From an uncultured bacterium (GTDB taxonomy: Bacteria; Oederibacteriota; PGYV01; CAWJRG01), in assembly GCA_963845185.1 (NCBI GenBank), contig CAWJRG010000009.1:1-64000 (forward strand): a DNA stretch of 64,000 nucleotides, given 5' to 3'. Under the pieces are notes generated by a model. It had not been told where the DNA came from, made no database searches, and saw nothing but the letters and a program-made list of their open reading frames with translations. Within the stretch, counting starts at the first letter, position 1; each line of letters begins with the position of its first letter. This document shows positions 7,020-63,925 of the stretch, in pieces. The translations under genes were made by a program, and so were the position numbers.

Positions 7020-7128
7020 CTTGCCGCCTCTCTACAAATGCTTTTAACGCAATCATTACGAAACTTTTTGGTGTTTTAGTTGTCTAATCATCAGTTTAAA
7101 AATACAGCTTTTAAGGAGGATTTAACTG

Positions 7129-8430
7129 ATGAAAAAACAAAAGGTTCTCATGGTTTTAGGCTTGGCTTTTATCCTTCTTGCATCATTCAGCTGCAAGTCG
7201 CACAATCCATCGGCAATAACACCCATCCAGCCGCCGCAGCAGGCGCATGCCGCAATCGTTCAGGAGCCTCCCGGTGACGGGAACAATGATTTTACCTTTG
7301 ATCTTTATCACCAGATAAATTCTTCAAACAGCAACGTATTTTTCTCGCCTTTCAGCATTTATACGGCGCTATCGATGACTTATGAAGGCGCGAAAAATGA
7401 AACTGCGTATGAAATGGCAAAGGTTCTTTATTTGCAGCAGGATAATGCCACGCGCTGGCAGAATTTCACGAATTTAATCAGAGAAATAAACAACCCGAAC
7501 AAGAATTACACTCTAAGCACTGCCAATAATCTCTGGCTGGAACAGAACTTTCAGTTTTATCAGAGTTTCCTAAACGCAGTAGAGACGTACTACAGCGCTT
7601 CTGCCACGGCCATGGATTTTTTAAATAACCCAACCGGGTGCATGCAGACAATCAACAACGCGGTAGCAAATGAAACCAACAACAAGATTACCAACCTGCT
7701 GCCTGCAGGAAGCATTACCCCGGAAACAGAGCTTGTCCTGACCAACGCGATATATTTTTATGCCACGTGGCAGAACCAGTTCGATCCGAATAACACCATG
7801 CCTTATCTTTTTACGACAAGTTCCGGCTCAACAGAGACGGTGCAGATGATGAAACAGACTTTGTCGGCAAATGTTGAGAATTATTATGGGGTCGCGCAGG
7901 TTATGGAGCTGCCTTACGTGAACAAGGAAGTGTCGATGTTTATATTCCTTCCGCCTGCAGGCGCTATGGATAGTCTTGATGCAAATATGACAGGCGCCAA
8001 GATGAACGCATGGCTGGCAGCAAGGCCGGCAACAGTCACTTCAACAGCGCAAGTTGTGCTGTCAGTTCCAAAATTTACAGTGAACACCACATATAATGCC
8101 ATGGCAGATACTTTATCCGCAATGGGCATGCCTACGCCTTTTTCGCAGTCGGCTGCAGATTTTTCAGGCATGTCGCCGGCTGTTGGCCCTAATTTTAACC
8201 TTTACATTTCCAAGGTTATACACAAAGCATATGTTTCAGTAGCTGAAAAAGGCACAGAAGCTGCGGCAGCAACTGCAGTAATTGTAGTTGGCATTACTTG
8301 CGTTAGTTATCAGCCAGTTGTCCAATATGTTTACTTTACCGTTGACCATCCGTTCATATTCATGATAAGGGAAAATACATCAAATACGATATTATTCATC
8401 GGCAAGGTCAATGACCCGAACGCGGGATAA
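7129..8430 (+). CDS. Serpin family protease inhibitor, lipoprotein (copy 1)
   Basis: Lipobox-like signal (LASFSC), NVFFSPFSI, LVLTNAIYF, hinge EKGTEAAAAT and FTVDHPFIFMI motifs. Confidence 0.95.
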   Translation: MKKQKVLMVLGLAFILLASFSCKSHNPSAITPIQPPQQAHAAIVQEPPGDGNNDFTFDLYHQINSSNSNVFFSPFSIYTALSMTYEGAKNETAYEMAKVLYLQQDNATRWQNFTNLIREINNPNKNYTLSTANNLWLEQNFQFYQSFLNAVETYYSASATAMDFLNNPTGCMQTINNAVANETNNKITNLLPAGSITPETELVLTNAIYFYATWQNQFDPNNTMPYLFTTSSGSTETVQMMKQTLSANVENYYGVAQVMELPYVNKEVSMFIFLPPAGAMDSLDANMTGAKMNAWLAARPATVTSTAQVVLSVPKFTVNTTYNAMADTLSAMGMPTPFSQSAADFSGMSPAVGPNFNLYISKVIHKAYVSVAEKGTEAAAATAVIVVGITCVSYQPVVQYVYFTVDHPFIFMIRENTSNTILFIGKVNDPNAG

Positions 8431-8457
8431 GCTGTAAAATTAGGGAGGTTTAAAGTA

Positions 8458-9747
8458 ATGAATAAGCAAAAGGTTCTCATGGTTTTAGGTCTGGCTTTAA
8501 TTCTTTTTGCATCATTCAGTTGCAAGTCACACAACCCTTCGGCAATAACGCCGATCCAGCAGCAGCAACAGCAACAGGTGCAGTCTGCAGTAATACAGGA
8601 ACCGCCTGCCGAGGGGGACAATGATTTTACCTTTGATTTGTACCACCAGATAAATTCAGACAGCGCAAACGTATTTTTCTCGCCGTTCAGCATATATGAC
8701 GCGCTTGCCATGACCTATGAAGGCGCAAAGGGAGAGACAGCGGGCCAGATGGCAAAGGTGCTTTACCTTCAGCAGGACAACAACACGCGCTGGCAGGCTT
8801 TCGCGGGTTTAATCGCAGAAATAAACAACCCGGCCAAGAATTACACGCTCAGCACAGCAAACAACCTCTGGCTTGAGCAGGATTATCCTTTTGTGCCGGG
8901 CTTTTTAAACACAGTTGAGACATACTACAGCGCTTCTGCCACGGCAATGGATTTTGTGGGCAACCCGAGCGGCTGCATGCAGACAATAAACACGGCTGTA
9001 GCGAATGAGACCAACAACAAGATTACAAACCTGCTTCCAAACGGAAGCATTACAGATAAAACCGTGCTTGTCCTAACAAACGCGATATATTTTTACGCCA
9101 CATGGCTGAACCAGTTCAACGTGGCGAACACCACTCCGACTGCTTTTACGGCAAGTTCCGGCGCAACAGAACAGCCGGATACCATGCACGAGACTATTGC
9201 TGCCAATGTGGAGAATTATTATGGGGTTGCGGCGGCAATGGAACTGCCTTACGTGAATAAGGAAGTATCGATGTTCATATTCCTCCCGCCTGCAGGAGGC
9301 ATGGCAAGCCTTGACACTTACATGACAGGCGCAAAGATGGACTCGTGGCTGGCGGCACGGCCCGCGACAGTCACTTCGACAGCGCAGGTCGTGGTTTCGC
9401 TGCCGAAATTTACAGTGAACACCACGTATGACGGCATGGGCGATACTTTAAAAAATATGGGCATGACTGATGCTTTTTTGCCGGGAACCGCTGATTTTAC
9501 AGGCATATCAACCGTGGGGCACCTTTATATTTCCAGGGTTATACATAAGGCGTATGTTTCTGTGGCTGAAAAGGGCACAGAAGCAGCGGCGGCAACAGCA
9601 GTAATTATCGCGCAGACATCGTGCGTAACTGCGCCCCCTAAGTATATTTATTTTACAGTGAACCATCCGTTCATATTCATGATACGTGAAAATACGTCAA
9701 ACACGATATTATTCATCGGCAAGGTTAATGACCCGAACGCGGGTTAA
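8458..9747 (+). CDS. Serpin family protease inhibitor, lipoprotein (copy 2)
   Basis: Paralog of the upstream serpin with the same motifs and a Q7 tract after the signal peptide. Confidence 0.95.
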   Translation: MNKQKVLMVLGLALILFASFSCKSHNPSAITPIQQQQQQQVQSAVIQEPPAEGDNDFTFDLYHQINSDSANVFFSPFSIYDALAMTYEGAKGETAGQMAKVLYLQQDNNTRWQAFAGLIAEINNPAKNYTLSTANNLWLEQDYPFVPGFLNTVETYYSASATAMDFVGNPSGCMQTINTAVANETNNKITNLLPNGSITDKTVLVLTNAIYFYATWLNQFNVANTTPTAFTASSGATEQPDTMHETIAANVENYYGVAAAMELPYVNKEVSMFIFLPPAGGMASLDTYMTGAKMDSWLAARPATVTSTAQVVVSLPKFTVNTTYDGMGDTLKNMGMTDAFLPGTADFTGISTVGHLYISRVIHKAYVSVAEKGTEAAAATAVIIAQTSCVTAPPKYIYFTVNHPFIFMIRENTSNTILFIGKVNDPNAG

Positions 9748-9772
9748 TCGGCATAAATTATTGCATTGAAAT

Positions 9773-10210: not shown

Positions 10211-10308
10211 ATACCGCTTGTCCTCAGCCTTGGGCTTCGGACTTGAGCGGGTACTAAGATATCGTAATGTTTTGCCTGTGCCTGTCGACGGCTTGGCAAA
10301 ACAAACGC
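10211..10308 (+). ncRNA. Two-hairpin leader element, copy 1 (minimal form)
   Basis: P1 ATACCGCTTGTCC..GGACTTGAGCGGGTAC plus P2 CGTAATGTTTTGCC..GCC-TGTCGAC-GGC..GGCAAAACAAACG. Homologous to 17947, 19061, 19231 and 31587. Confidence 0.7.
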
Positions 10309-10329
10309 TATCATAAGAGGGAAGCGGTT

Positions 10330-12387: not shown

Positions 12388-12412
12388 GGCACAGGCAAAG
12401 GAGAAAACAAGG

Positions 12413-13999
12413 GTGAATGCAAAAAAGGTTTTATTATTATCTGCAGTGTTGTTCCTTATTTCCGGGAAAACAGCAGTTCCATATCCATGGAACGCCACAT
12501 ATCCATACGGCATGCAGGCAACCAACGCGAGCTCTAGCCAGGTGCAGGCCATATATGACGATTGGGCAAGCGAGTGCATAACTTCAAGCGGCGCAGGCGG
12601 ATACCGCAGGGTGCAAACCCCGGGAAATACCCCGCCTATTGACCCGCCTGCCACTGATTCAATATCAGAGGGAATAGGCTATGGAATGTTGTTTGCAGTG
12701 TATTTTTCAGACCAGCCTTTATTTAACGATTTGTGGAACTATGAGAAGCTCCACCTTGATTCAGACGGGCTCATGAACTGGGACATAACCGACACAGGCG
12801 CAGTACGCGGGTACAACTCTGCCACAGACGGCGACCAGGACATAGCTTTTAGCCTTGTCATGGCAGACAGGGAGTGGGGTTCAGGGACGTATTGCTATCT
12901 TACAAATGCAGCTGTTGAAATAACAAAATTAAAAACTTACGACTGCGATGCGTCGGACTATCATTTAAAACCCGATGACATGTGGGATGGCGTTGAATTT
13001 CCATGCTATTATATGCCTGCATGGTATACTGAGTTTGGGGTTGTAAACCCGTCTGAGGCGTCTTTCTGGGCAAACGTAGAAAACAAATGCAACTCAAACC
13101 TTGCAGCAGGCAGAAATCAAAACACAGGGCTCGTCGCGGAAAACCTGAACCATGACGGCACTGTGTATGGCGCCAATACATACTGGTATAATTCCTGCCG
13201 GGTGCCGTGGAGGTACGCCATAGACTATGCATGGAACGGCGACTCATTTAGCCAGACAGAAACAAACATGCTTGCCGTATTTTTCAACAACATAGGCCCG
13301 TCGAACATACTCGACGGCTATGACGTGGCGACAGGAGCGGCCACAGGCACGGATAATAATTCGGCTTTTGTAGGGCCGGCTGCATGCTCGCTGATGTCGC
13401 TGAGCCAGACTGCCTCAAACCAGAACAGTTTAAATGGTTTTTATACATGGTTGAATAATTACGGATATGACGGGTATTATTACGACGGCGCGCTCGCTAT
13501 AATGTCCATGCTTTTAATGTCCGGCAATTTCCCCAAATCTTTTTATACGCCGACAATCACGCCTGTTGTCTCACCTACGCCGACTTCGACAATTTCGCCC
13601 GTGCTTTCCCCGACGCCGACATACACCATAACGCCTGTTCCGCAGCCTACGCTGACGCCGGCGCCTTATTATCCGGCAAAAGGATTAATGATTTATCCGG
13701 ACCCGCTGAACAGGGTAAACGGCCTGCAGAACATGACGCTCAGGGTAAACCTGTCAAAACAGGAAACTTACGTGTGGATAAGGGTCTATACTTTCGCGAT
13801 GAGGAAGGTATTTGAAGGCTATGAAACAGTGCCAAACACAACAGCGGCAGGATGGCAGGACATACCGCTTGTAAACACAAGGAATTATCTTATCAGCACA
13901 GGCGCGGCAAACGGGCTGTATTATTATACTGTCTGCGATTTGCAAAACGGGAACCTGAACCGGATAAGCCAGGCAGAAACTTTTATAATATTGCGGTAA
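12413..13999 (+). CDS. Glycoside hydrolase family 8 with PT linker and C-terminal Ig-like/sorting domain (copy 1)
   Basis: SEGIGYGM, GLMNW, SATDGD and YNSCRVPWR motifs. GTG start after GGAG, chosen by analogy with copy 2. Confidence 0.9.
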   Translation: MNAKKVLLLSAVLFLISGKTAVPYPWNATYPYGMQATNASSSQVQAIYDDWASECITSSGAGGYRRVQTPGNTPPIDPPATDSISEGIGYGMLFAVYFSDQPLFNDLWNYEKLHLDSDGLMNWDITDTGAVRGYNSATDGDQDIAFSLVMADREWGSGTYCYLTNAAVEITKLKTYDCDASDYHLKPDDMWDGVEFPCYYMPAWYTEFGVVNPSEASFWANVENKCNSNLAAGRNQNTGLVAENLNHDGTVYGANTYWYNSCRVPWRYAIDYAWNGDSFSQTETNMLAVFFNNIGPSNILDGYDVATGAATGTDNNSAFVGPAACSLMSLSQTASNQNSLNGFYTWLNNYGYDGYYYDGALAIMSMLLMSGNFPKSFYTPTITPVVSPTPTSTISPVLSPTPTYTITPVPQPTLTPAPYYPAKGLMIYPDPLNRVNGLQNMTLRVNLSKQETYVWIRVYTFAMRKVFEGYETVPNTTAAGWQDIPLVNTRNYLISTGAANGLYYYTVCDLQNGNLNRISQAETFIILR

Positions 14000-14866: not shown

Positions 14867-14918
14867 GTAAAAACAAACGAAAGAACAAAGGCAGGCACGG
14901 GCAAAGGAGAAAACAAGG

Positions 14919-16448
14919 TTGAATTTAAAAAAGGTTTTGTTATTATCTGCAGCTTTGTTCCTTATTTCCGGGAAAACAGCAGTTCCATATCCATGGAACG
15001 TGACATATCCGTACGGCATGCAGGCAACCAACGCGAGCTCTGCGCAGGTGCAGGCCATATATAACGCATGGGCAAGCGCCTGCATAACCTCAAGCGGCGC
15101 AGGCGGATACCGCAGGGTGCAAAACCCGGGAAATACCCCGCCTACAGACCCGCCTGCCACCGACTCTGTGTCGGAAGGCATAGGCTACGGCATGATAATG
15201 GCCGTGTATTTTTCGGACCAGTCCCTGCTGAATGATTTATGGAATTATGAGAAAATTTATATTGATTCAGACGGGCTCATGAACTGGGATATAGCCGACA
15301 CAGGCACAGTAAGCGGGTACGGCTCGGCTACGGACGGTGATGAAGACATAGCTTTTAGCCTTGTCATGGCTGGCAGGGAATGGGGCTCGTCAGGCACGTA
15401 TAATTACATATCGCTTGCCGCAGCTGAAATAACAAAACTAAAAAATTACGACTGCAGCGCGTCGGACTATCATTTAAAACCCGGGGACGGGTGGGATGAT
15501 TGTGAATTTCCTTCGTATTACATGCCTGCCTGGTACACTGAGTTTGGGGTCGTAAACCCGGGTGAGGCGTCTTTCTGGGCAAACGTAGAAAACAAATGCA
15601 ACTCAAACCTTGCAACAGGCATAAATCCAGGCACGGGGCTCGTCGCGGAAACCCTGAATCATAACGGCACTGTATACGGTACAAACACATACGGCTATAA
15701 TTCCTGCAGGGTGCCGTGGAGATACGCCATTGATTACGTGTGGAACGGCGATCCGGCGGCCCAGACAGAAACAGGCCTGCTGGCGGCATTTTTTAACAAC
15801 ATAGGGCCGGCAAACATACTTGACGGTTATGATGTGGCGACAGGCGCGGCTAACGGCTTATATAATGATTCGGCTTTTGTCGGGCCCGCAGGATGCTCGC
15901 TGATGTCGCTGAGCCAGACTGCCTCAAACCAGAACAGTTTAAATGGTTTTTATACCTGGCTGAATAATTACGGATATGACGGTTATTATTATGATGGAGC
16001 GCTCGCGGTAATGTCCATGCTTTTAATGTCCGGCAATTTCCCCAAATATTTTTATACGCCGACAATCACGCCTGTTGTCTCACCGACACCGCAGCCTGCG
16101 CTGACGCCGGCGCCTTATTATCCGGCAAAAGGATTAATGATTTATCCCAACCCGCTGAACAGGGCAAACGGCCTGCAGAACATGACGCTCAGGATAAACC
16201 TGTCAAAACAGGAAACTTATGTGTGGATAAGGGTCTATACTTTCGCGATGAGGAAGGTATTTGAAGGCTATGAAACAGTGCCAAACGCAACAGCGGCGGG
16301 ATGGCAGGATATACCGCTTGTAAACACAAGGAATTATCTTATCAGCACAGGCGCGGCAAACGGGCTGTATTATTATACTGTCTGTGATTTGCAAAACGGG
16401 AACCTGAACCGGATAAGCCAGGCAGAAACTTTTATAATATTGCGGTAA
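14919..16448 (+). CDS. Glycoside hydrolase family 8 with PT linker and C-terminal Ig-like/sorting domain (copy 2)
   Basis: Close paralog of 12413-13999. TTG start after GGAG. Confidence 0.9.
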   Translation: MNLKKVLLLSAALFLISGKTAVPYPWNVTYPYGMQATNASSAQVQAIYNAWASACITSSGAGGYRRVQNPGNTPPTDPPATDSVSEGIGYGMIMAVYFSDQSLLNDLWNYEKIYIDSDGLMNWDIADTGTVSGYGSATDGDEDIAFSLVMAGREWGSSGTYNYISLAAAEITKLKNYDCSASDYHLKPGDGWDDCEFPSYYMPAWYTEFGVVNPGEASFWANVENKCNSNLATGINPGTGLVAETLNHNGTVYGTNTYGYNSCRVPWRYAIDYVWNGDPAAQTETGLLAAFFNNIGPANILDGYDVATGAANGLYNDSAFVGPAGCSLMSLSQTASNQNSLNGFYTWLNNYGYDGYYYDGALAVMSMLLMSGNFPKYFYTPTITPVVSPTPQPALTPAPYYPAKGLMIYPNPLNRANGLQNMTLRINLSKQETYVWIRVYTFAMRKVFEGYETVPNATAAGWQDIPLVNTRNYLISTGAANGLYYYTVCDLQNGNLNRISQAETFIILR

Positions 16449-17805: not shown

Positions 17806-17905
17806 AAAATGGCGCTGCATGTTTTAAATCAGATGTGTAAAGCGGATTTACTTGTTTTATACGCCTTTTTGGAGCATACTCAATATATGATAGTTTATGA
17901 GAACG

Positions 17906-17936
17906 GCCATGATGACGGCTTGACAGAATAAACGCT
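17906..17936 (+). ncRNA. Truncated leader element (3' half of P2 only)
   Basis: GCC-ATGATGAC-GGCTTGACAGAATAAACGC followed by the same ATGATATCAAGCA spacer seen at 19220. Confidence 0.55.
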
Positions 17937-17946
17937 ATGATATCAA

Positions 17947-18175
17947 GCATTGCTTGTCCTTGGCCTGCCGGCCTCGGACTTGAGCGGCTTGACAGAGTTT
18001 GATTTTGAAAGCGTCAACAGAGAAGCAAAATCATTACTCTGACAAGTCCATGCAACGCATGGAGTGCGTAATATTTTGTCAGGGTAGCTTTTATAATGAT
18101 GATTAATGGAAACTACCCGTCAAATAGTCCACAGGACTATTTGACCCTGTTTGAGGGCTTGACAAAATAAACGCT
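17947..18175 (+). ncRNA. Two-hairpin leader element, copy 2 (carries inserts X and Y)
   Basis: P1 core GCTTGTCC..GGACTTGAGCGG, insert X at 17988-18063, and P2 GCGTAATATTTTGTCA..TGACAAAATAAACGC with insert Y at 18082-18145. Ends just before AAGGAG. Confidence 0.7.
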
Positions 18176-18190
18176 ATCAAGGAGATAAAC

Positions 18191-18889
18191 ATGAAAACAC
18201 AATTCACAAAGAACAGGTTCAGGCCAATGCTGGCAGGACTGCTTTGCCCACTGTTTTTAATAATTATTTTCAGCCTTTTGGCCGCGAGGGATGTGCGCAA
18301 TGAAGGCACCCAAAGCAACAGCGTGCACAGCAGCAGTACGCACAGCAGTAGCGTGCACAGCGGCAATGTGCGCAGTGGAGGAGTAAGCAGCGCGAACTGG
18401 CACAACGGTGGCGTAAGCAGCGCGAACTGGCATAACGGTGGCGTAAGCAATGCTAACTGGCATAATGGAGGCGTTCACAGCGGATACTGGCACAATGGAG
18501 GCACGCACGGCGGGTACTGGCACAATGGAAGCTGGTACAGGTGGCACGGAACGTACTGGATAGGAGGCATTCCTTATTACTATTACTATAACCCTTACTA
18601 CTCTGACGAGTACTGCGAAGTAGTACCGGATGGATATATTGTTGTGCCGGCACCGGTTGTAAGTTCGGACCAGCAGGAAGCAGAGCCCGATGCTTCCAAC
18701 CCGGCCCAGGAACCTCCGCAAACACAGGAAAAATCACCAAACAAAATTATAATAAACATACCAAATTCACACGGCGGTTTTACGCCCGTAACCCTTAAAA
18801 AATACAAAAAGGGGTATATAGGCCCGCAGGGTGAATTTTACGATGGCAAGCCGACCGTTAAACAGTTACAAGTATTGTACGGGGATTAA
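18191..18889 (+). CDS. Hypothetical exported low-complexity repeat protein
   Basis: AAGGAG RBS, N-terminal hydrophobic helix, 5/10-residue WHNGG repeats, a Tyr-rich stretch and a small C-terminal domain. Confidence 0.75.
   Translation: MKTQFTKNRFRPMLAGLLCPLFLIIIFSLLAARDVRNEGTQSNSVHSSSTHSSSVHSGNVRSGGVSSANWHNGGVSSANWHNGGVSNANWHNGGVHSGYWHNGGTHGGYWHNGSWYRWHGTYWIGGIPYYYYYNPYYSDEYCEVVPDGYIVVPAPVVSSDQQEAEPDASNPAQEPPQTQEKSPNKIIINIPNSHGGFTPVTLKKYKKGYIGPQGEFYDGKPTVKQLQVLYGD
18317..18547 (+). repeat. Coding tandem repeats (15/30-bp period)
   Basis: AGCAGCGCGAACTGGCA(C/T)AACGGTGGCGTA units encoding SSANWHNGGV, preceded by 15-bp S.VHS units. Confidence 0.8.
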
Positions 18890-19060
18890 CAGGTATATAA
18901 GGAACCCGTATAAAAAAGTCATATAATTTATATTACTGAAGTCAGTCTCAGATCATTCCTTTTTGTGTGGTAACTGCTAATAAATATTGCAATATGGGGG
19001 ATTTCACAATATAATCAATAAGGCTGCAGATTTTGCCGGCCACTGTTAATTTATCAATCA

Positions 19061-19220
19061 ATACCGCTTGTCCCTCACAAGTTCGGGACTGGAGCGGCTT
19101 GACAGAGTTTGATTTTGCAAGCGTCAACAGAGAAGCATAATCATTACTCTGACAAGTCCATGCAACGCATGGAGTGCGTAATACTTTGCCAGCACCTTTG
19201 GCTTGACAAAATAAACGAAA
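19061..19220 (+). ncRNA. Two-hairpin leader element, copy 3a (insert X)
   Basis: ATACCGCTTGTCC..GGACTGGAGCGG, insert X at 19098-19173, and a short P2. Confidence 0.7.
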
Positions 19221-19230
19221 TGATATCAAG

Positions 19231-19390
19231 CACCCCTTGTCCTCGGCCTTGGGGCTTCGGACTTGAGCGGGTACATGATTTCGTAATACTTTGCTGGGTA
19301 GCTTTTACATGATGACTTATGGTAACTACCAGTCAAATAGTCCGCAGGACTATTTGACTGCCTTCGACGGCTTGGCAAAATAAACGAAAT
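19231..19390 (+). ncRNA. Two-hairpin leader element, copy 3b (insert Y)
   Basis: CTTGTCC..GGACTTGAGCGGGTAC, then ATTTCGTAATACTTTGC..GGCAAAATAAACGAAAT with insert Y at 19296-19358. Ends just before GGGAGG. Confidence 0.7.
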
Positions 19391-19403
19391 TAAGGGAGGT
19401 TTT

Positions 19404-20387
19404 ATGAAAGCGATTGTATACACAAAATACGGACCGCCGGATGTCCTTGAGTTCAGGGAAGTGAAAAAACCTGAGCCCTGGAATAATGAAGTGCTTGTAA
19501 GAATTCAGGCGGCATCATTAAACGCGGCTGACTGGCATCTTTTGAGGGCTGACCCGTTCATAACCCGCCTGTTTTCAGGGCTTTTGTGGCCGAAATACAC
19601 TATACTCGGAGCTGACATAGCAGGGCGGGTCGAAGCTGTCGGCAAAGACGTAAAGCAGTTTAAGCCGGACGAGGATGTATTCGGGGATTTATTCAGGAGC
19701 GGCTTTGGCGGTTTCGCGGAATATGCAATCGCCAGGGAAGAGGCATTAGCGCCGAAACCTGTCGGCTTGACATTTGAGGAAGCAGCGGCAGTGCCTGTGG
19801 CTGCAGTCACTGCTTTGCAGGGCCTCCGCGACAAAGGGCATATCAAGCCGGGACAAAAGGTCCTGATTAACGGCGCGTCGGGCGGTGTCGGCACATTCGC
19901 GGTGCAGATTGCCAAATCATTCGGCGCAGAAGTTACAGCCGTGTGCAGCACTGGGAACATGGACCTGGCGCGGTCACTCGGCGCGGACCATGTCATTGAT
20001 TACAACAGGGAAGATTTCACCAAAAACGGGCAGCAATATGATTTGATTCTTGCCGCCAACGGATATCATCCGATTTCAGACTACAAGCGCGCGTTAAGCG
20101 CCAAAGGCACTTATGTCATGAGCGGAGGTTCGGGCGCCCAGATGTTCCAGGCCATGCTCATGGGGCCGTGGATTTCAATGACCGGGGAAAAGAAAATGAT
20201 CGGCCTGTCAGCGGCATCAAACCAAAAAGATTTGCTTTTTATAAAAGGGCTTATTGAAGCTGGTAAAGTAAAACCAGTCATAGACAGGCGTTACCCTTTA
20301 AGCAAGGTCGCCGAAGCTTTCCAGTACCTTGAACAAGGTCACGCGCGGGGGAAAGTGGTAATAGATATTGAAAATTATAAGCCATAA
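19404..20387 (+). CDS. NAD(P)-dependent MDR-family oxidoreductase (Zn-independent, quinone reductase-like)
   Basis: MKAIVYTKYGPPDVL, VLINGASGGVGTFAVQIAK and GHARGKVVI motifs. Confidence 0.92.
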   Translation: MKAIVYTKYGPPDVLEFREVKKPEPWNNEVLVRIQAASLNAADWHLLRADPFITRLFSGLLWPKYTILGADIAGRVEAVGKDVKQFKPDEDVFGDLFRSGFGGFAEYAIAREEALAPKPVGLTFEEAAAVPVAAVTALQGLRDKGHIKPGQKVLINGASGGVGTFAVQIAKSFGAEVTAVCSTGNMDLARSLGADHVIDYNREDFTKNGQQYDLILAANGYHPISDYKRALSAKGTYVMSGGSGAQMFQAMLMGPWISMTGEKKMIGLSAASNQKDLLFIKGLIEAGKVKPVIDRRYPLSKVAEAFQYLEQGHARGKVVIDIENYKP

Positions 20388-28586: not shown

Positions 28587-28663
28587 CGGGGCGTAGCGCA
28601 GGTGGCTAGCGCACTCGCTTGGGGTGCGAGAGGTCGCCCGTTCAAATCGGGTCGCCCCGACCA
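28587..28663 (+). tRNA. tRNA-Pro(GGG)
   Basis: CGGGGCG acceptor, anticodon arm CTCGC-TTGGGGT-GCGAG, TTCAAAT T-loop and encoded CCA. Confidence 0.97.
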
Positions 28664-29353: not shown

Positions 29354-29430
29354 CGGGGCGTAGCGCAGGTGGCTAGCGCGCCTGCTTCGGGAGCAGGAGG
29401 TCGCTGGTTCAAATCCAGTCGCCCCGACCA
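29354..29430 (+). tRNA. tRNA-Pro(CGG)
   Basis: Anticodon arm CCTGC-TTCGGGA-GCAGG, GGTTCAAATCC T-arm and encoded CCA. Confidence 0.97.
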
Positions 29431-31586: not shown

Positions 31587-31681
31587 ATACCGCTCGTTCA
31601 AGGCAGTAGCCTTGAACTGGACCGGGTATAAGACTCCGAAAGATTTTGCCTTAGCTGTTGACGCTCGGCGAAATCAACGGA
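31587..31681 (+). ncRNA. Two-hairpin leader element, copy 4 (diverged, apt leader)
   Basis: ATACCGCTCGTTC-AAGGC..GCCTT-GAACTGGACCGGGTAT plus TCCGAAAGATTTTGCC..GC-TGTTGAC-GC..GGCGAAATCAACGGA, then AAGGAG. Confidence 0.65.
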
Positions 31682-31696
31682 CTCTAAGGAGCAAAC

Positions 31697-61385: not shown

Positions 61386-62330
61386 TTGCCAAAACTTCTT
61401 TCAATCGTAATTACAACCTGCAATCGTTACGGAGACTTAATGGAATGCCTTGATTCGGTATTTAAGTCTGATTATGAAAACTATGAAATAATAGTAATTG
61501 ATGATGCTTCTACAGATAATACAAAAGACCTGACTGAAATAGTAATCAAGGCAAAATTCGGCATACACGAAAACCACGTTTCTGTAATTCACAACCCCGG
61601 CAATTTTAAAATGGTAAAATCGCGCAACATAGGCGCAAAAACCGCAAAAGGCAGATATGTATTGTTTATTGACGATGATAATATATTCAGCAATGATATG
61701 ATAAGCCTGCTTGTTAATTTTGCAGATAAGCATCCTGAATTCGGAATAATAGGGCCGAGCATGTATTATAAAAATGGCGAAAAGTTATACATGAACTACC
61801 AAAAAATAAATTTTTTTACCGGGAAAACTTGGGGGATTAAGGCAGAAGAATCGTCAAAAGAGTATTTCGAGACCGACGGCGTGCCGAACGTATTCCTCAT
61901 AAGAAAAGAAGTATTTGAGCAGGCCGGATATTTTGACGAAGCATTAATACAGACTTTTACCGAGCCTGATTTTGCTTTTAATGCCCTGAAATTCGGCTTT
62001 AAGAGCTGCATGGTGAAAAAGGCAAAAGTACTTCATAAAATCGAAGAAAAAGACAATCTAAGCCCCAGGGGGCTTGGCGGACAGTTTATACAAAAAGCGT
62101 ATTGCCTTATGAGAAACAGGACGGTGATAATCGCGCGGTACGCTAATCCGGTTCAGAAAACTATTTATTTTCTGTTTTTTTCATGGGCTTGGCCTTTGCT
62201 TTATTCCGGTTTAATGATAAAATCTAAAAGGGCAGATCTTATTAAACTTTACTGGGCAGGCTTTAGGGATGGAATAGGATATTTATTTACGGGAAAATTA
62301 AAAAACAGCCTGCCGGAACTTATGAAATGA
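61386..62330 (+). CDS. Glycosyltransferase family 2
   Basis: SIVITTCNR, VIDDASTD, SRNIG, LFIDDD and GYFDE motifs. TTG start after GGAG. Confidence 0.9.
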   Translation: MPKLLSIVITTCNRYGDLMECLDSVFKSDYENYEIIVIDDASTDNTKDLTEIVIKAKFGIHENHVSVIHNPGNFKMVKSRNIGAKTAKGRYVLFIDDDNIFSNDMISLLVNFADKHPEFGIIGPSMYYKNGEKLYMNYQKINFFTGKTWGIKAEESSKEYFETDGVPNVFLIRKEVFEQAGYFDEALIQTFTEPDFAFNALKFGFKSCMVKKAKVLHKIEEKDNLSPRGLGGQFIQKAYCLMRNRTVIIARYANPVQKTIYFLFFSWAWPLLYSGLMIKSKRADLIKLYWAGFRDGIGYLFTGKLKNSLPELMK

Positions 62331-62437
62331 AATAATCACTTTCTTTGATTTAAAAATTATTTGTAGAAAATTAGTATTGAGAAGGTTTGCAAGAAGCATT
62401 TATATTGCGCGGGGCGGAGGAGTTTGTAAAAGAATAA

Positions 62438-63925
62438 ATGGCTAAAATCACTTTTATATATCCTGATTTTGAGAGCTTGGGCGTTGAATACCTGATGGCA
62501 TCCTGTTTAAAAAACGGCCATGAGGCGGATTATGTTTTTTATCATGCCGAGGACATGTACGCGGGCGAAAAAGACAGGGTTGTCAATTTTTTAAGTGTAG
62601 CAAAAAAGATAGCCGGTACAAACCCGCATATTGCGGCATTTTCATGCGTGACAGACAATTACCGGTTCCAACTCGGCTGCGCGGAAGCGCTTAAAACAAT
62701 TATGCCTGATATAATAACAGTATTCGGCGGAGTTCATCCTACCATAGTGCCGGAGATTGTTTTAAAAGAAAAAGCAGTTGACTGCATTGCTGTCGGAGAA
62801 GCAGAAAATTCCTTTCAGGATTTTATCAAAAAATGCAGAATCGGCAAAAAAATCACATTACCCAGCCGGCCTGTAAAAGGCATTGTTTTTAAATTAAAAG
62901 GCAACACTGCCGGCGATTTTAAGGAAGGCAGGCTCCCGGACCTGAATAAACTGCCGTTTCCTTATAAAAAGCCGCTTTACACAAGGCTTAAGGCTTTTTC
63001 CCGAGAGTATTATATAATAACAGCCCGAGGCTGCCCCTATAACTGTTCGTATTGTTTTAACTCATATTTGCGGCATTTGCGGGGCGCAGGCATTATCCGG
63101 CAAAGGACGGTTGATAACGTGATTGCCGAGCTTTTACAGGCAAAACGCGAATATGCGCCAAGGCACGTCACTTTTTTGGACGATTGTTTTGCCATTGACG
63201 ATAAATGGCTCAAGGAGTTTTGCCGGCGCTATAAGAATGAAGTCAACCTGCCGTTTGCATGCATCATGATACCGCAGTATTTAAACAAAGAAAAAGTTCA
63301 GGCATTGAGTTCAGCGGGCTGTTATCATGTGCAGATAGGCATTCAATCGCTTAATAACAGGCTCTGCAACAACATCCTGCGGAGAAGGTCTGATAACATA
63401 AAAAGCGGTGAAGCTATACGCATGCTTAGAGACGCCGGGATTATGGTACAGGCCGATCATATGCTTGGCATTCCCAGAGATACACCGGCGATGGAAGAAG
63501 ATGCCGCGCTGTTTTATAATAAATTCCGGCCGAATATAATAAGCACTTTCTGGCTTAAGTATTACCCGAAAACCGGGATTATTGACAGCGCGAAGCAAAA
63601 AGGCATCCTAAACGCACAGGATATAAAAGCCGTAAACGAAGGTAATGCATTAACGAAAGAATCGCTGCATACCGGCGGCAGCATGAAAGACCCGAGCCCA
63701 TATTACGGCATTTACCTTTTATTAAATTATTTACCCTTATTGCCGTCATGGCTTGTGCGTTTTCTAATAAAACAAAAATTGTATAAAAAGCTGGCAATTA
63801 AAAATGCTTTTGTTTCATTTGTCTTACCGCGCTTTCTGCTTGCTGCCTTGCATAGAAAAGATTTTCGTGACAGGGGATATATGTACCGCTATTTAAATAA
63901 AAATTTCCTGCAAAAGGCAAGATAG
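62438..63925 (+). CDS. Cobalamin-binding radical SAM protein
   Basis: ESLGVEYL, FGGVHPT, VGEAE, ARGCPYNCSYC and RTVDNVIAE motifs. Confidence 0.92.
   Translation: MAKITFIYPDFESLGVEYLMASCLKNGHEADYVFYHAEDMYAGEKDRVVNFLSVAKKIAGTNPHIAAFSCVTDNYRFQLGCAEALKTIMPDIITVFGGVHPTIVPEIVLKEKAVDCIAVGEAENSFQDFIKKCRIGKKITLPSRPVKGIVFKLKGNTAGDFKEGRLPDLNKLPFPYKKPLYTRLKAFSREYYIITARGCPYNCSYCFNSYLRHLRGAGIIRQRTVDNVIAELLQAKREYAPRHVTFLDDCFAIDDKWLKEFCRRYKNEVNLPFACIMIPQYLNKEKVQALSSAGCYHVQIGIQSLNNRLCNNILRRRSDNIKSGEAIRMLRDAGIMVQADHMLGIPRDTPAMEEDAALFYNKFRPNIISTFWLKYYPKTGIIDSAKQKGILNAQDIKAVNEGNALTKESLHTGGSMKDPSPYYGIYLLLNYLPLLPSWLVRFLIKQKLYKKLAIKNAFVSFVLPRFLLAALHRKDFRDRGYMYRYLNKNFLQKAR

Follow-up and report, generated by a model that had tools for sequence, protein, structure and literature searches.

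Why should a leader that recurs before many genes of one uncultured bacterium carry, in some of its copies, a segment that reads like one of its own hairpins written backwards? The question arises in a window of 64,000 nucleotides (bases 1-64000 of contig C9, from a 3.50-Mb genome in 11 contigs, G000), where two copies of an insert, X, lie at 17988-18063 and 19098-19173 within leaders built from two hairpin modules, P1 and P2. A first-pass annotation of the window had described X as an inverted copy of the whole element nested inside itself, able either to insert in both orientations or to act as a built-in antisense loop. We find that X is homologous to P2 and inverted with respect to it, that it occupies one fixed site in one orientation with sharp borders, and that no intact forward P2 stands beside it. 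Judged from its sequence, X is an inverted P2 to which a small hairpin has been added, rather than an inverted whole element.

The leaders that host X form a large repeat family. Iterated nhmmer searches of the genome returned 118 P1 hits, with the consensus TACCGCT-T-GTCC..variable..GGAC-TTG-AGCGG-G-TA, and 175 P2 hits, 164-165 of which lie outside X (the count varies with the overlap margin). An open reading frame (ORF) of at least 50 aa starts no more than 80 nt 3' of P2 in 115 of 165 copies, mostly at 10-30 nt, and another 15 copies are followed by a further P1, giving tandem units. Six P2 matches at an exact spacing of 100 nt in contig C9 (916576-917135) form a tandem array of such leader units. 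An alignment of 41 P2 copies contains 16 consensus pairs, 11 of which show compensatory changes, and in many copies two optional hairpins, C1 and C2, are located within the P2 loop.

Homology and orientation were both assessed with models of P2. The first iterated nhmmer models hit X but could themselves contain X copies, and X-free models were used instead: a hidden Markov model (HMM) made from 126 P2 copies, all outside X, and a covariance model, R1, built from 41 forward P2 copies with X excluded. The HMM matched 10 of 12 genomic X copies at 10-21 bits, on the minus strand only, and missed the decayed and the truncated copy; the maximum over 1000 dinucleotide shuffles of X was 6.2 bits. R1 aligned end to end with the minus strand of both window copies, at 17988-18044 (38.9 bits, E 3.7e-6) and 19098-19154 (33.7 bits, E 5e-5), and found no match at E<=10 on the plus strand of either. 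This model discriminates orientation, scoring a canonical P2 at 70.9 bits in the sense direction versus 21.9 bits in the antisense direction. It matched all 14 full-length X copies on the opposite strand (2 in the window, 9 elsewhere in the genome and 3 metagenomic), with scores of 25.9-56.7 bits for the 12 beyond the window, and gave no match to the truncated twelfth genomic copy. The annotation's proposal that the reverse complement of X is a complete P2 is borne out by these scores, both against the shuffled controls and by strand. Subtype HMMs derived from loose regular expressions (47, 71 and 73 rows) had clear false members and were not relied on; these noisy models scored X no better, at 5-15 bits.

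The features common to X and P2 are an outer stem, an internal loop that is asymmetric (5' AAU, 3' AA), the heptaloop UGUUGAC and a central stem, GAUUUUGC/GCAAAAUC. On its plus strand X presents the loop GTCAACA, the complement of the P2 loop TGTTGAC, and its first base aligns with the last position of R1, the ..UCAAG that usually abuts the Shine-Dalgarno (SD) sequence. Within the window the 11-mer AGCGTCAACAG occurs on the plus strand in both X copies (18010-18020 and 19120-19130) and on the minus strand at 31655-31665. The last of these matches confirms an exact complementarity, already noticed in the first pass, between X and the P2 loop in the leader of a gene labelled apt. Three occurrences compare with 0.47 expected, and three were reached in 1 of 100 shuffles.

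In all, X is made up of a 59-nt inverted P2-type hairpin and a 17-nt small hairpin, TCCATGC-NNN-GCATGGA, that forms its last 17 nt and in which one compensatory change, C-G to U-A, is seen in a metagenome copy (L017). A P1-like core, which had also been claimed for X, was not recovered: a P1 HMM gave no hit to 12 X copies on either strand at E<=10000, and weak hits in 17 of 1000 shuffles. The P1 likeness left in X amounts to a 7-base match, GGACTTG, and the 17-nt hairpin. X also contains an 8-nt direct repeat, GCGAAGCA, and its truncated copy (contig C5, 742682) is a deletion between the two repeats. Unlike the covarying P2, X keeps its sequence at the level of single bases, in the loop and bulges too, with few compensatory changes.

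The insertion site is equally well defined. The two window copies share 74 of 76 bases (97% identity), and both break the 3' strand of P1 between GAGCGG and GT(A/G), at the bulged G of its basal stem (AGCGG and GTA), in agreement with the earlier description of two near-identical copies at a bulged position of P1. P1 copies that lack X read GAGCGGGTA at this junction, for example at 10244-10252 and 19265-19273, and comparison of the filled junction, GAGCGG-X-GTA, with the empty GAGCGGGTA shows that a target duplication is absent. Searches with blastn and of the genome located 12 X copies: 10 of full length, at 89-100% identity, plus a decayed and a truncated one. An exact degenerate pattern added three copies in metagenome contigs and found no match in further genome contigs, and X was not found in 40 related genomes. 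All 15 copies (12 genomic, 3 metagenomic) have the same junction and the same orientation relative to P1, and none stands alone. A P1 directly precedes X in 10 of the 12 genomic copies and in all three metagenomic ones; in the remaining two, P1 is either degenerate or carries C1-C2 in place of its 5' half. X appears to be a lineage-specific module, and the leader to which it belongs stands before the ribosome-binding sites of over 100 genes in this genome.

Insertion in either orientation, as first suggested, is contradicted by this census and by the wider count of P2. Among the 164 P2 hits outside X, a P1 is found on the same strand within 150 nt in 107, no P1 is present in 56, and only one hit is inverted relative to its P1. 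This lone opposite P2 (contig C9, 258787-258841; 61.3 bits on the minus strand) is flipped in place between its own outer-stem arms. In the leader that contains it (258744-258841 of the same contig) P1 is on the plus strand, and the gene still starts at 258868.

X behaves as a discrete, sharply bounded unit. Pairwise identity averages 93.0% among the 10 full copies, with a minimum of 88.2% over 45 pairs, and the 40-nt flanks are 68.4% (5') and 53.1% (3') alike, compared with 72.8% and 65.3% when 89 X-less elements are paired at random. The notion of a mobile hairpin unit is therefore upheld as regards discreteness, with 93% identity set in flanks at background, and fails as regards orientation, which is the same in 15 of 15 copies. 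In metagenome contig L016, the gene downstream of X shares 87.5% identity with the gene that follows the decayed X at contig C10, 582981; X is older than the split between L016 and this genome, because it sits at the orthologous locus in both. The L016 copy differs from the X consensus at 2 of 76 positions and its genomic orthologue at 13 of 76. A second metagenome contig, L017, holds an X with 4 differences from the consensus next to genes ~76% identical to those of this genome, its element lying antisense to both neighbouring ORFs. The orthologous site in the genome has only a degenerate P1-like hairpin, lacking GAGCGG and X, and is not a clean empty site. Most X copies are probably constrained or otherwise kept uniform, and at least one is decaying.

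X and an intact forward P2 are mutually exclusive within one unit. With intact P2 defined as a full-length hit (at least 52 nt and at least 35 bits) within 45 nt, none of the 12 X-bearing units is followed by one, versus 81 of 111 X-less P1 copies (Fisher p = 8e-7, a value overstated in that the copies are related). Six of the 12 have a partial P2 and six have none, the three metagenome copies likewise lack a P2 of their own unit, and R1 recovers no intact P2 of the unit at the X loci. Measured from the P1 junction, a TGTTGAC-type loop lies 20 nt or more downstream in all 38 X-less leaders with such a loop; in three of five X-bearing leaders the distance is 13-15 nt (14, 15, and 18 less 5 bases of X tail), indicating that the 5' arm of P2 is gone in these three and in none of the 38. 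Compared with the canonical sequence, the three deletion junctions differ from one another, and the other two X-bearing leaders with a TGTTGAC loop have degenerate P2 5' arms. X together with an intact P2 would form an inverted repeat with arms of ~55 nt and a spacer of ~35 nt, and the genome appears not to tolerate this arrangement. An enrichment of TGTTGAC loops near X was also considered and set aside, as 7 of 12 (scored by eye, with next units counted) versus 59 of 164 overall is not convincing.

Both X-bearing leaders of the window have lost an intact P2: that of unit 1 is split by C1-C2, that of unit 2a is shortened and mismatched, and in neither is the loop complementary to X. The parts of these leaders, together with the X-less leaders used for comparison, are as follows in window coordinates.

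10257 to 10315, plus strand: canonical forward P2 of an X-less reference leader (covariance model, 70.9 bits).
17912 to 17947, plus strand: stretch resembling the 3' half of P2, upstream of unit 1 (repeat family D15; rare, 3/118 P1), with a sigma-70-like match (ATGACG, 18 nt, TATGAT; 9/12).
17948 to 17987, plus strand: P1 of unit 1, comprising the 5' strand, the apical hairpin GTCC..GGAC and the 3' strand to GAGCGG; a hairpin of its own in the predicted fold.
17988 to 18046, minus strand: main hairpin of X copy 1, an inverted P2 (R1 positions 1-57; HMM 12.7 bits), folding independently.
18047 to 18063, plus strand: small hairpin of X copy 1, TCCATGC-AAC-GCATGGA, present in the fold; no match to the P1 profile.
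18064 to 18179, plus strand: forward P2 of unit 1, split by two hairpins and giving no contiguous HMM or covariance-model P2 hit; 5' arm 18064-18081, C1 18082-18118, C2 18119-18145, rest of the loop and 3' arm 18146-18179; loop CCTGTTTGAGGGCT instead of TGTTGAC.
18180 to 18184, plus strand: SD sequence AGGAG.
18191 to 18889, plus strand: 232-aa ORF with a signal-peptide-like start and no Pfam family.
18987 to 19015, plus strand: best sigma-70-like match upstream of unit 2 (TTGCAA, 17 nt, TATAAT; 10/12, a consensus match only).
19061 to 19097, plus strand: P1 of unit 2a.
19098 to 19156, minus strand: main hairpin of X copy 2, an inverted P2 (R1 end to end).
19157 to 19173, plus strand: small hairpin of X copy 2.
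19171 to 19225, plus strand: forward P2 of unit 2a, degenerate and with its linker shortened (covariance model 48.5 bits, 8 non-pairs); loop AGCACCTTTGGCTT, not complementary to the X loop; the HMM hit covers 19176-19217 only and was scored partial.
19231 to 19399, plus strand: unit 2b, X-less; P1 19231-19273 with GAGCGGGTA unbroken, P2 5' arm 19274-19296, C1 and C2 at about 19296-19358, P2 3' part 19359-19393, SD 19394-19399.
19404 to 20387, plus strand: zinc-dehydrogenase-family ORF after unit 2b.
31588 to 31687, plus strand: X-less leader of the gene labelled apt in the first pass; P1 31588-31628, P2 31631-31687 (covariance model 55.2 bits), with the loop 11-mer CTGTTGACGCT at 31655-31665 exactly complementary to the X loop.

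RNA folding of 17946-18196 gave -94.2 kcal/mol (z -7.2) and of 19058-19232 gave -54.3 kcal/mol (z -3.7). Both window leaders are predicted to fold as separate hairpins: P1, X, the small hairpin and the remainder.

What, then, might X do in these leaders? We regard it as an even call that X is an accessory module, an inverted P2 that pairs with P2 or replaces it in cis. X would have arisen from a flipped P2 hairpin, a route made plausible by the one in-place flip found elsewhere in the genome, and may have spread to a dozen P1 copies by site-specific insertion or by very short conversion tracts. The inverted repeat of X and a forward P2 would not be tolerated, either as a DNA palindrome or as a long double-stranded RNA, so that the resident P2 would have worn away, starting at its 5' arm. 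Once transcribed, X would pair through its 5' half and loop with the surviving loop and 3' arm of P2, rebuilding a helix that ends at the SD sequence, and would take over the job of the P2 5' arm. Four X-bearing leaders that retain a P2 loop and 3' arm were folded, and the long-range pairing wins in two (contig C5, 749298, and contig C9, 653994). In the minimum-energy structures of these two, the X 5' arm and loop pair with the P2 loop and 3' arm, and the predicted helix reaches the base before the SD sequence. In the other two X stays closed, and opening its 3' arm for long-range pairing would cost 5.6 and 7.9 kcal/mol. Kissing in cis between X and the tip of an intact P2 is a different proposal and is ruled out, as an intact P2 is present in 0 of 12 X-bearing units.

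Several points weigh against an accessory module acting in cis. The long-range helix is predicted from minimum free energy and is the favoured structure in only two of four leaders. The shared ancestry of X copies makes the Fisher value too strong, three of the eroded copies lie within 10 kb of one contig, and leaders split by C1-C2 were scored, in both groups, as lacking an intact P2. Recent spread, and not selection, could account for the high identity of X, and the enzyme or mechanism that places X was not found among the transposases and recombinases searched. Tests of which strand folds are conflicting or weak. The P2 central stem has 9 G-U versus 28 A-C on the sense strand, and folding energies with RNA parameters favour the sense strand for P2 (65 versus 53 copies) and the antisense strand for P1 (64 versus 44). 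With DNA parameters there is no significant strand difference for P2 and one of ~0.3 kcal/mol for P1 (p 0.012). Substitutions in X that keep a wobble pair number five on the plus strand and two on the minus strand, small numbers read by eye from the alignment.

A serious rival, although in our judgement an unlikely one, is that X is a non-autonomous palindromic parasite at the DNA level, akin to miniature inverted-repeat transposable elements (MITEs), palindrome-associated transposable elements (PATEs) or REPINs, which inserts at GAGCGG^GTA of P1 and has no role as RNA. Erosion of P2 would then be the ordinary instability of long inverted repeats. Long palindromes and inverted repeats are genetically unstable, and the independent inner-arm deletions described above fit such instability. 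A parasite would also be expected to show borders that are sharp and the same in every copy, and highly similar copies in differing flanks, and the one visibly decayed copy fits as well. That all 15 copies use a single target site without duplicating it resembles insertion sequences (ISs) of the IS200/IS605 type, which insert at one target without target duplication. However, a fixed short target, one orientation and no duplication are also expected from one ancestral event followed by conversion. The parasite reading is weakened by the single orientation and the lack of any stand-alone X, and by the L016 copy, which lies at an old orthologous locus and is near consensus, unlike a dead parasite unless it has been re-converted.

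The survey of enzymes counts against a DNA parasite as well. Y1 (HUH) transposases and RAYT proteins (PF01797) gave 0 matches in the genome, which is 99.4% complete, whereas a control search found PF01797 in 6 of 14 reference genomes. There is no integron integrase IntI (the best TIGR02249 match has 86 bits against a cut-off of 265), and the tyrosine recombinases number only three. Searching with X by blastn returned X copies and partial P2 matches only, with no parent IS with matching ends; the ends of IS110 elements and group II introns are unrelated to X, other IS families not having been surveyed, and copies of both use other targets. A transposase, recombinase or reverse transcriptase flanked by the element, which the first-pass annotation had envisaged, did not emerge: Y1 is absent, IS110 elements and group II introns are not generally flanked by it, and nothing ties the mobile elements found to X.

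These mobile elements have targets of their own. The IS110-type matches number seven, among them a 1288-bp element whose five copies lie within a different repeat (contig C1, 322287-323574, and four more at loci L019-L022; four are identical). Several IS110 copies are flanked by GGGAGAGGG/GGGTGAGGGTGA-type repeats, which suggests that this different repeat serves as the IS110 target. Six near-identical group II intron-like elements of ~1.93 kb with a reverse transcriptase (loci L024-L029) lie in contig C9 at 811164-813089, 699931-701863 and 845005-846929, in contig C10 at 383310-385233 and 831360-833306, and in contig C11 at 61534-63458. Each begins with GTGCG right after ..GGAGG-N(4-6)-ATGA, that is, an SD sequence, a start codon and an A, and the intron thus seems to home into translation start regions. 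Of the six, the contig C11 copy alone adjoins a leader, directly after it.

Action in trans is less probable again. Because a subset of leaders carries the reverse complement of its own hairpin, one could imagine X as a switchable helix at the ribosome-binding site in cis and as a partner of ~50 leaders in trans, making these leaders built-in antisense regulators or sponges of a leader network that spans the genome, a combination that we consider quite doubtful. The narrower proposal that X is a trans antisense module, by which X-bearing mRNAs pair with many P2-bearing mRNAs through kissing and then an extended duplex, would link the expression of otherwise unrelated genes and seems to us slightly more doubtful still. 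The built-in antisense loop postulated in the first pass keeps its complementarity, and the partner left to it in cis is an eroded P2 instead of a P2 hairpin tip, P2 being intact in 0 of 12 units. X and P2 loops have 9-13 complementary bases, and among the 164 forward P2 the complement of the X loop is present as the 9-mer CTGTTGACG in 54 and as an 11-mer in 10. An X:P2 duplex is predicted to be better than the separate hairpins by more than 5 kcal/mol for 17 of 122 P2, against 0 of 122 in a sense-oriented control, and a sequence-conserved X facing covarying P2 is the pattern expected of a multi-target antisense. However, complementarity follows automatically from inversion and carries no sign of selection, and about two thirds of P2 loops lack TGTTGAC.

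The genes involved also speak against regulation in trans. In all 12 genomic copies, X is followed at a distance of 51-254 nt by the start of an ORF of 60 aa or more that has an SD sequence before it. These ORFs comprise a zinc dehydrogenase family member, two NHL-repeat proteins, TPR, Kelch and CARDB/BatD proteins, a xanthine/uracil-type permease, a phosphoglucomutase family member, a DUF2569 protein and three without a Pfam family. They are mutually unrelated in function and have no common theme with the possible targets.

The least probable explanation, that X is a mere extra stabilising hairpin, maintained because a stable 5' structure is favoured, in leaders all descended from one flipped-P2 variant, its likeness to P2 now meaningless, draws on the predicted fold of isolated X (-33.5 kcal/mol), its independent hairpin in both window leaders and the family's habit of grafting modules at loops or bulges (for example C1-C2 in the P2 loop), but selection for stability would permit covariation where X is conserved base by base, the flanks of X leaders are no more alike than those of random members, against descent of whole leaders, and the repeated loss of the P2 5' arm would be left unexplained.

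A further candidate, the P2 loop TTGACG as a -35 box with X as an antisense promoter, was dropped: a -35/-10-like stretch upstream of P1 was found in only 3 of 118 copies, and an antisense -10 in X matches at 3 of 6 positions by eye.

Outside this genome the leader family is sparse. The P2 model has 122 matches here and 1-4 matches in 4 of 40 relatives (G001, G003, G014 and G021), which belong to other families of the order; the P2 hairpin is presumably older than, or was passed into, lineages where it never expanded. Searched against Rfam, the 64-kb window yielded nothing but one tRNA at gathering score, and the 17850-19450 region gave four weak matches, the best at 19.4 bits against a gathering score of 49. 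The tRNA is the second of two tRNA-Pro genes, at 28587-28663 and 29354-29430, with anticodons GGG and CGG, 767 nt apart and 84% alike; Rfam at its gathering threshold reported only the second. Elsewhere in the window, 12388-13939 and 14894-16388 are a segmental duplication of ~1.5 kb (83-97% identity) and 7111-9756 holds tandem paralogous genes of ~1.3 kb, both of them upstream of the NHL-repeat ORF before the first X-bearing leader.

Bacteria commonly carry structured repeats between their genes, and the function and spread of these repeats are rarely understood. The leader repeat described here serves an estimated ~4% of genes (115 leaders, with 3,000 genes assumed). That the forward hairpin is never intact beside the inverted one gives a testable handle on these leaders as folded RNA: the X leaders would be natural partner-swap variants and, in an uncultured lineage, a clear example of a hairpin that flipped and of a palindrome that then eroded. 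Of the papers listed on this lineage's repeats, MITEs and intergenic hairpin repeats, none appears to concern this element.

The nearest comparisons are with short repeats that form hairpins. In bacterial interspersed mosaic elements (BIMEs), the clusters of repetitive extragenic palindromic (REP) units in E. coli, and in REPIN doublets, repeats often lie in alternating or opposite orientation, and REPINs depend on a RAYT (Y1) transposase. X differs from REPINs in that its genome is without Y1 and in that X is nested at one exact base of another module and excludes the forward copy. The review PMC3184786 presents BIMEs and REPINs as short genomic hairpin repeats lying beside their own copies, intergenic and with an effect on mRNA stability, in which they resemble X. 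REP sequences are ~35 nt long, GC-rich and mostly 3' of genes, whereas X is 5' of genes. The same review (PMC3184786) describes leader repeats in Neisseria (REP2) and Borrelia (IR-A/IR-B), to which the base P1-P2 leader, with its 115 of 165 P2 near an ORF start, is comparable. REP2 differs in having about 26 copies that include a promoter and the ATG, with no inverted nested module among the features given there (PMC3184786). More generally, the passages of PMC3184786 on REP clusters, REPINs, REP2, the Borrelia repeats and BOX describe no repeat that has an inverted paralogue of one of its own modules nested within it at a fixed base.

In X-bearing leaders one module is the inverted paralogue of another, which sets them apart from the BOX elements of Streptococcus pneumoniae. 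BOX elements have a modular boxA-boxB-boxC build. According to PMC3184786 they resemble P1-P2 in being structured repeats that lie between genes, and their action is thought to be at the level of RNA. Their modules keep one orientation and are, by the same account, thought to be IS-mobilised (PMC3184786), whereas here no mobilising IS was found.

Should X also pair in trans, the leaders would have built an antisense network by an unusual route, as a self-referential RNA regulon that grew out of a repeat. In the antisense systems CopA/CopT and RNAI/RNAII, complementary hairpin loops nucleate a pairing that then spreads into the stems. X and P2 resemble these pairs in being two predicted hairpins with apical loops complementary in sequence. 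They differ in that CopA/CopT and RNAI/RNAII employ a separate antisense RNA from the same locus, whereas X lies within the sense leader itself.

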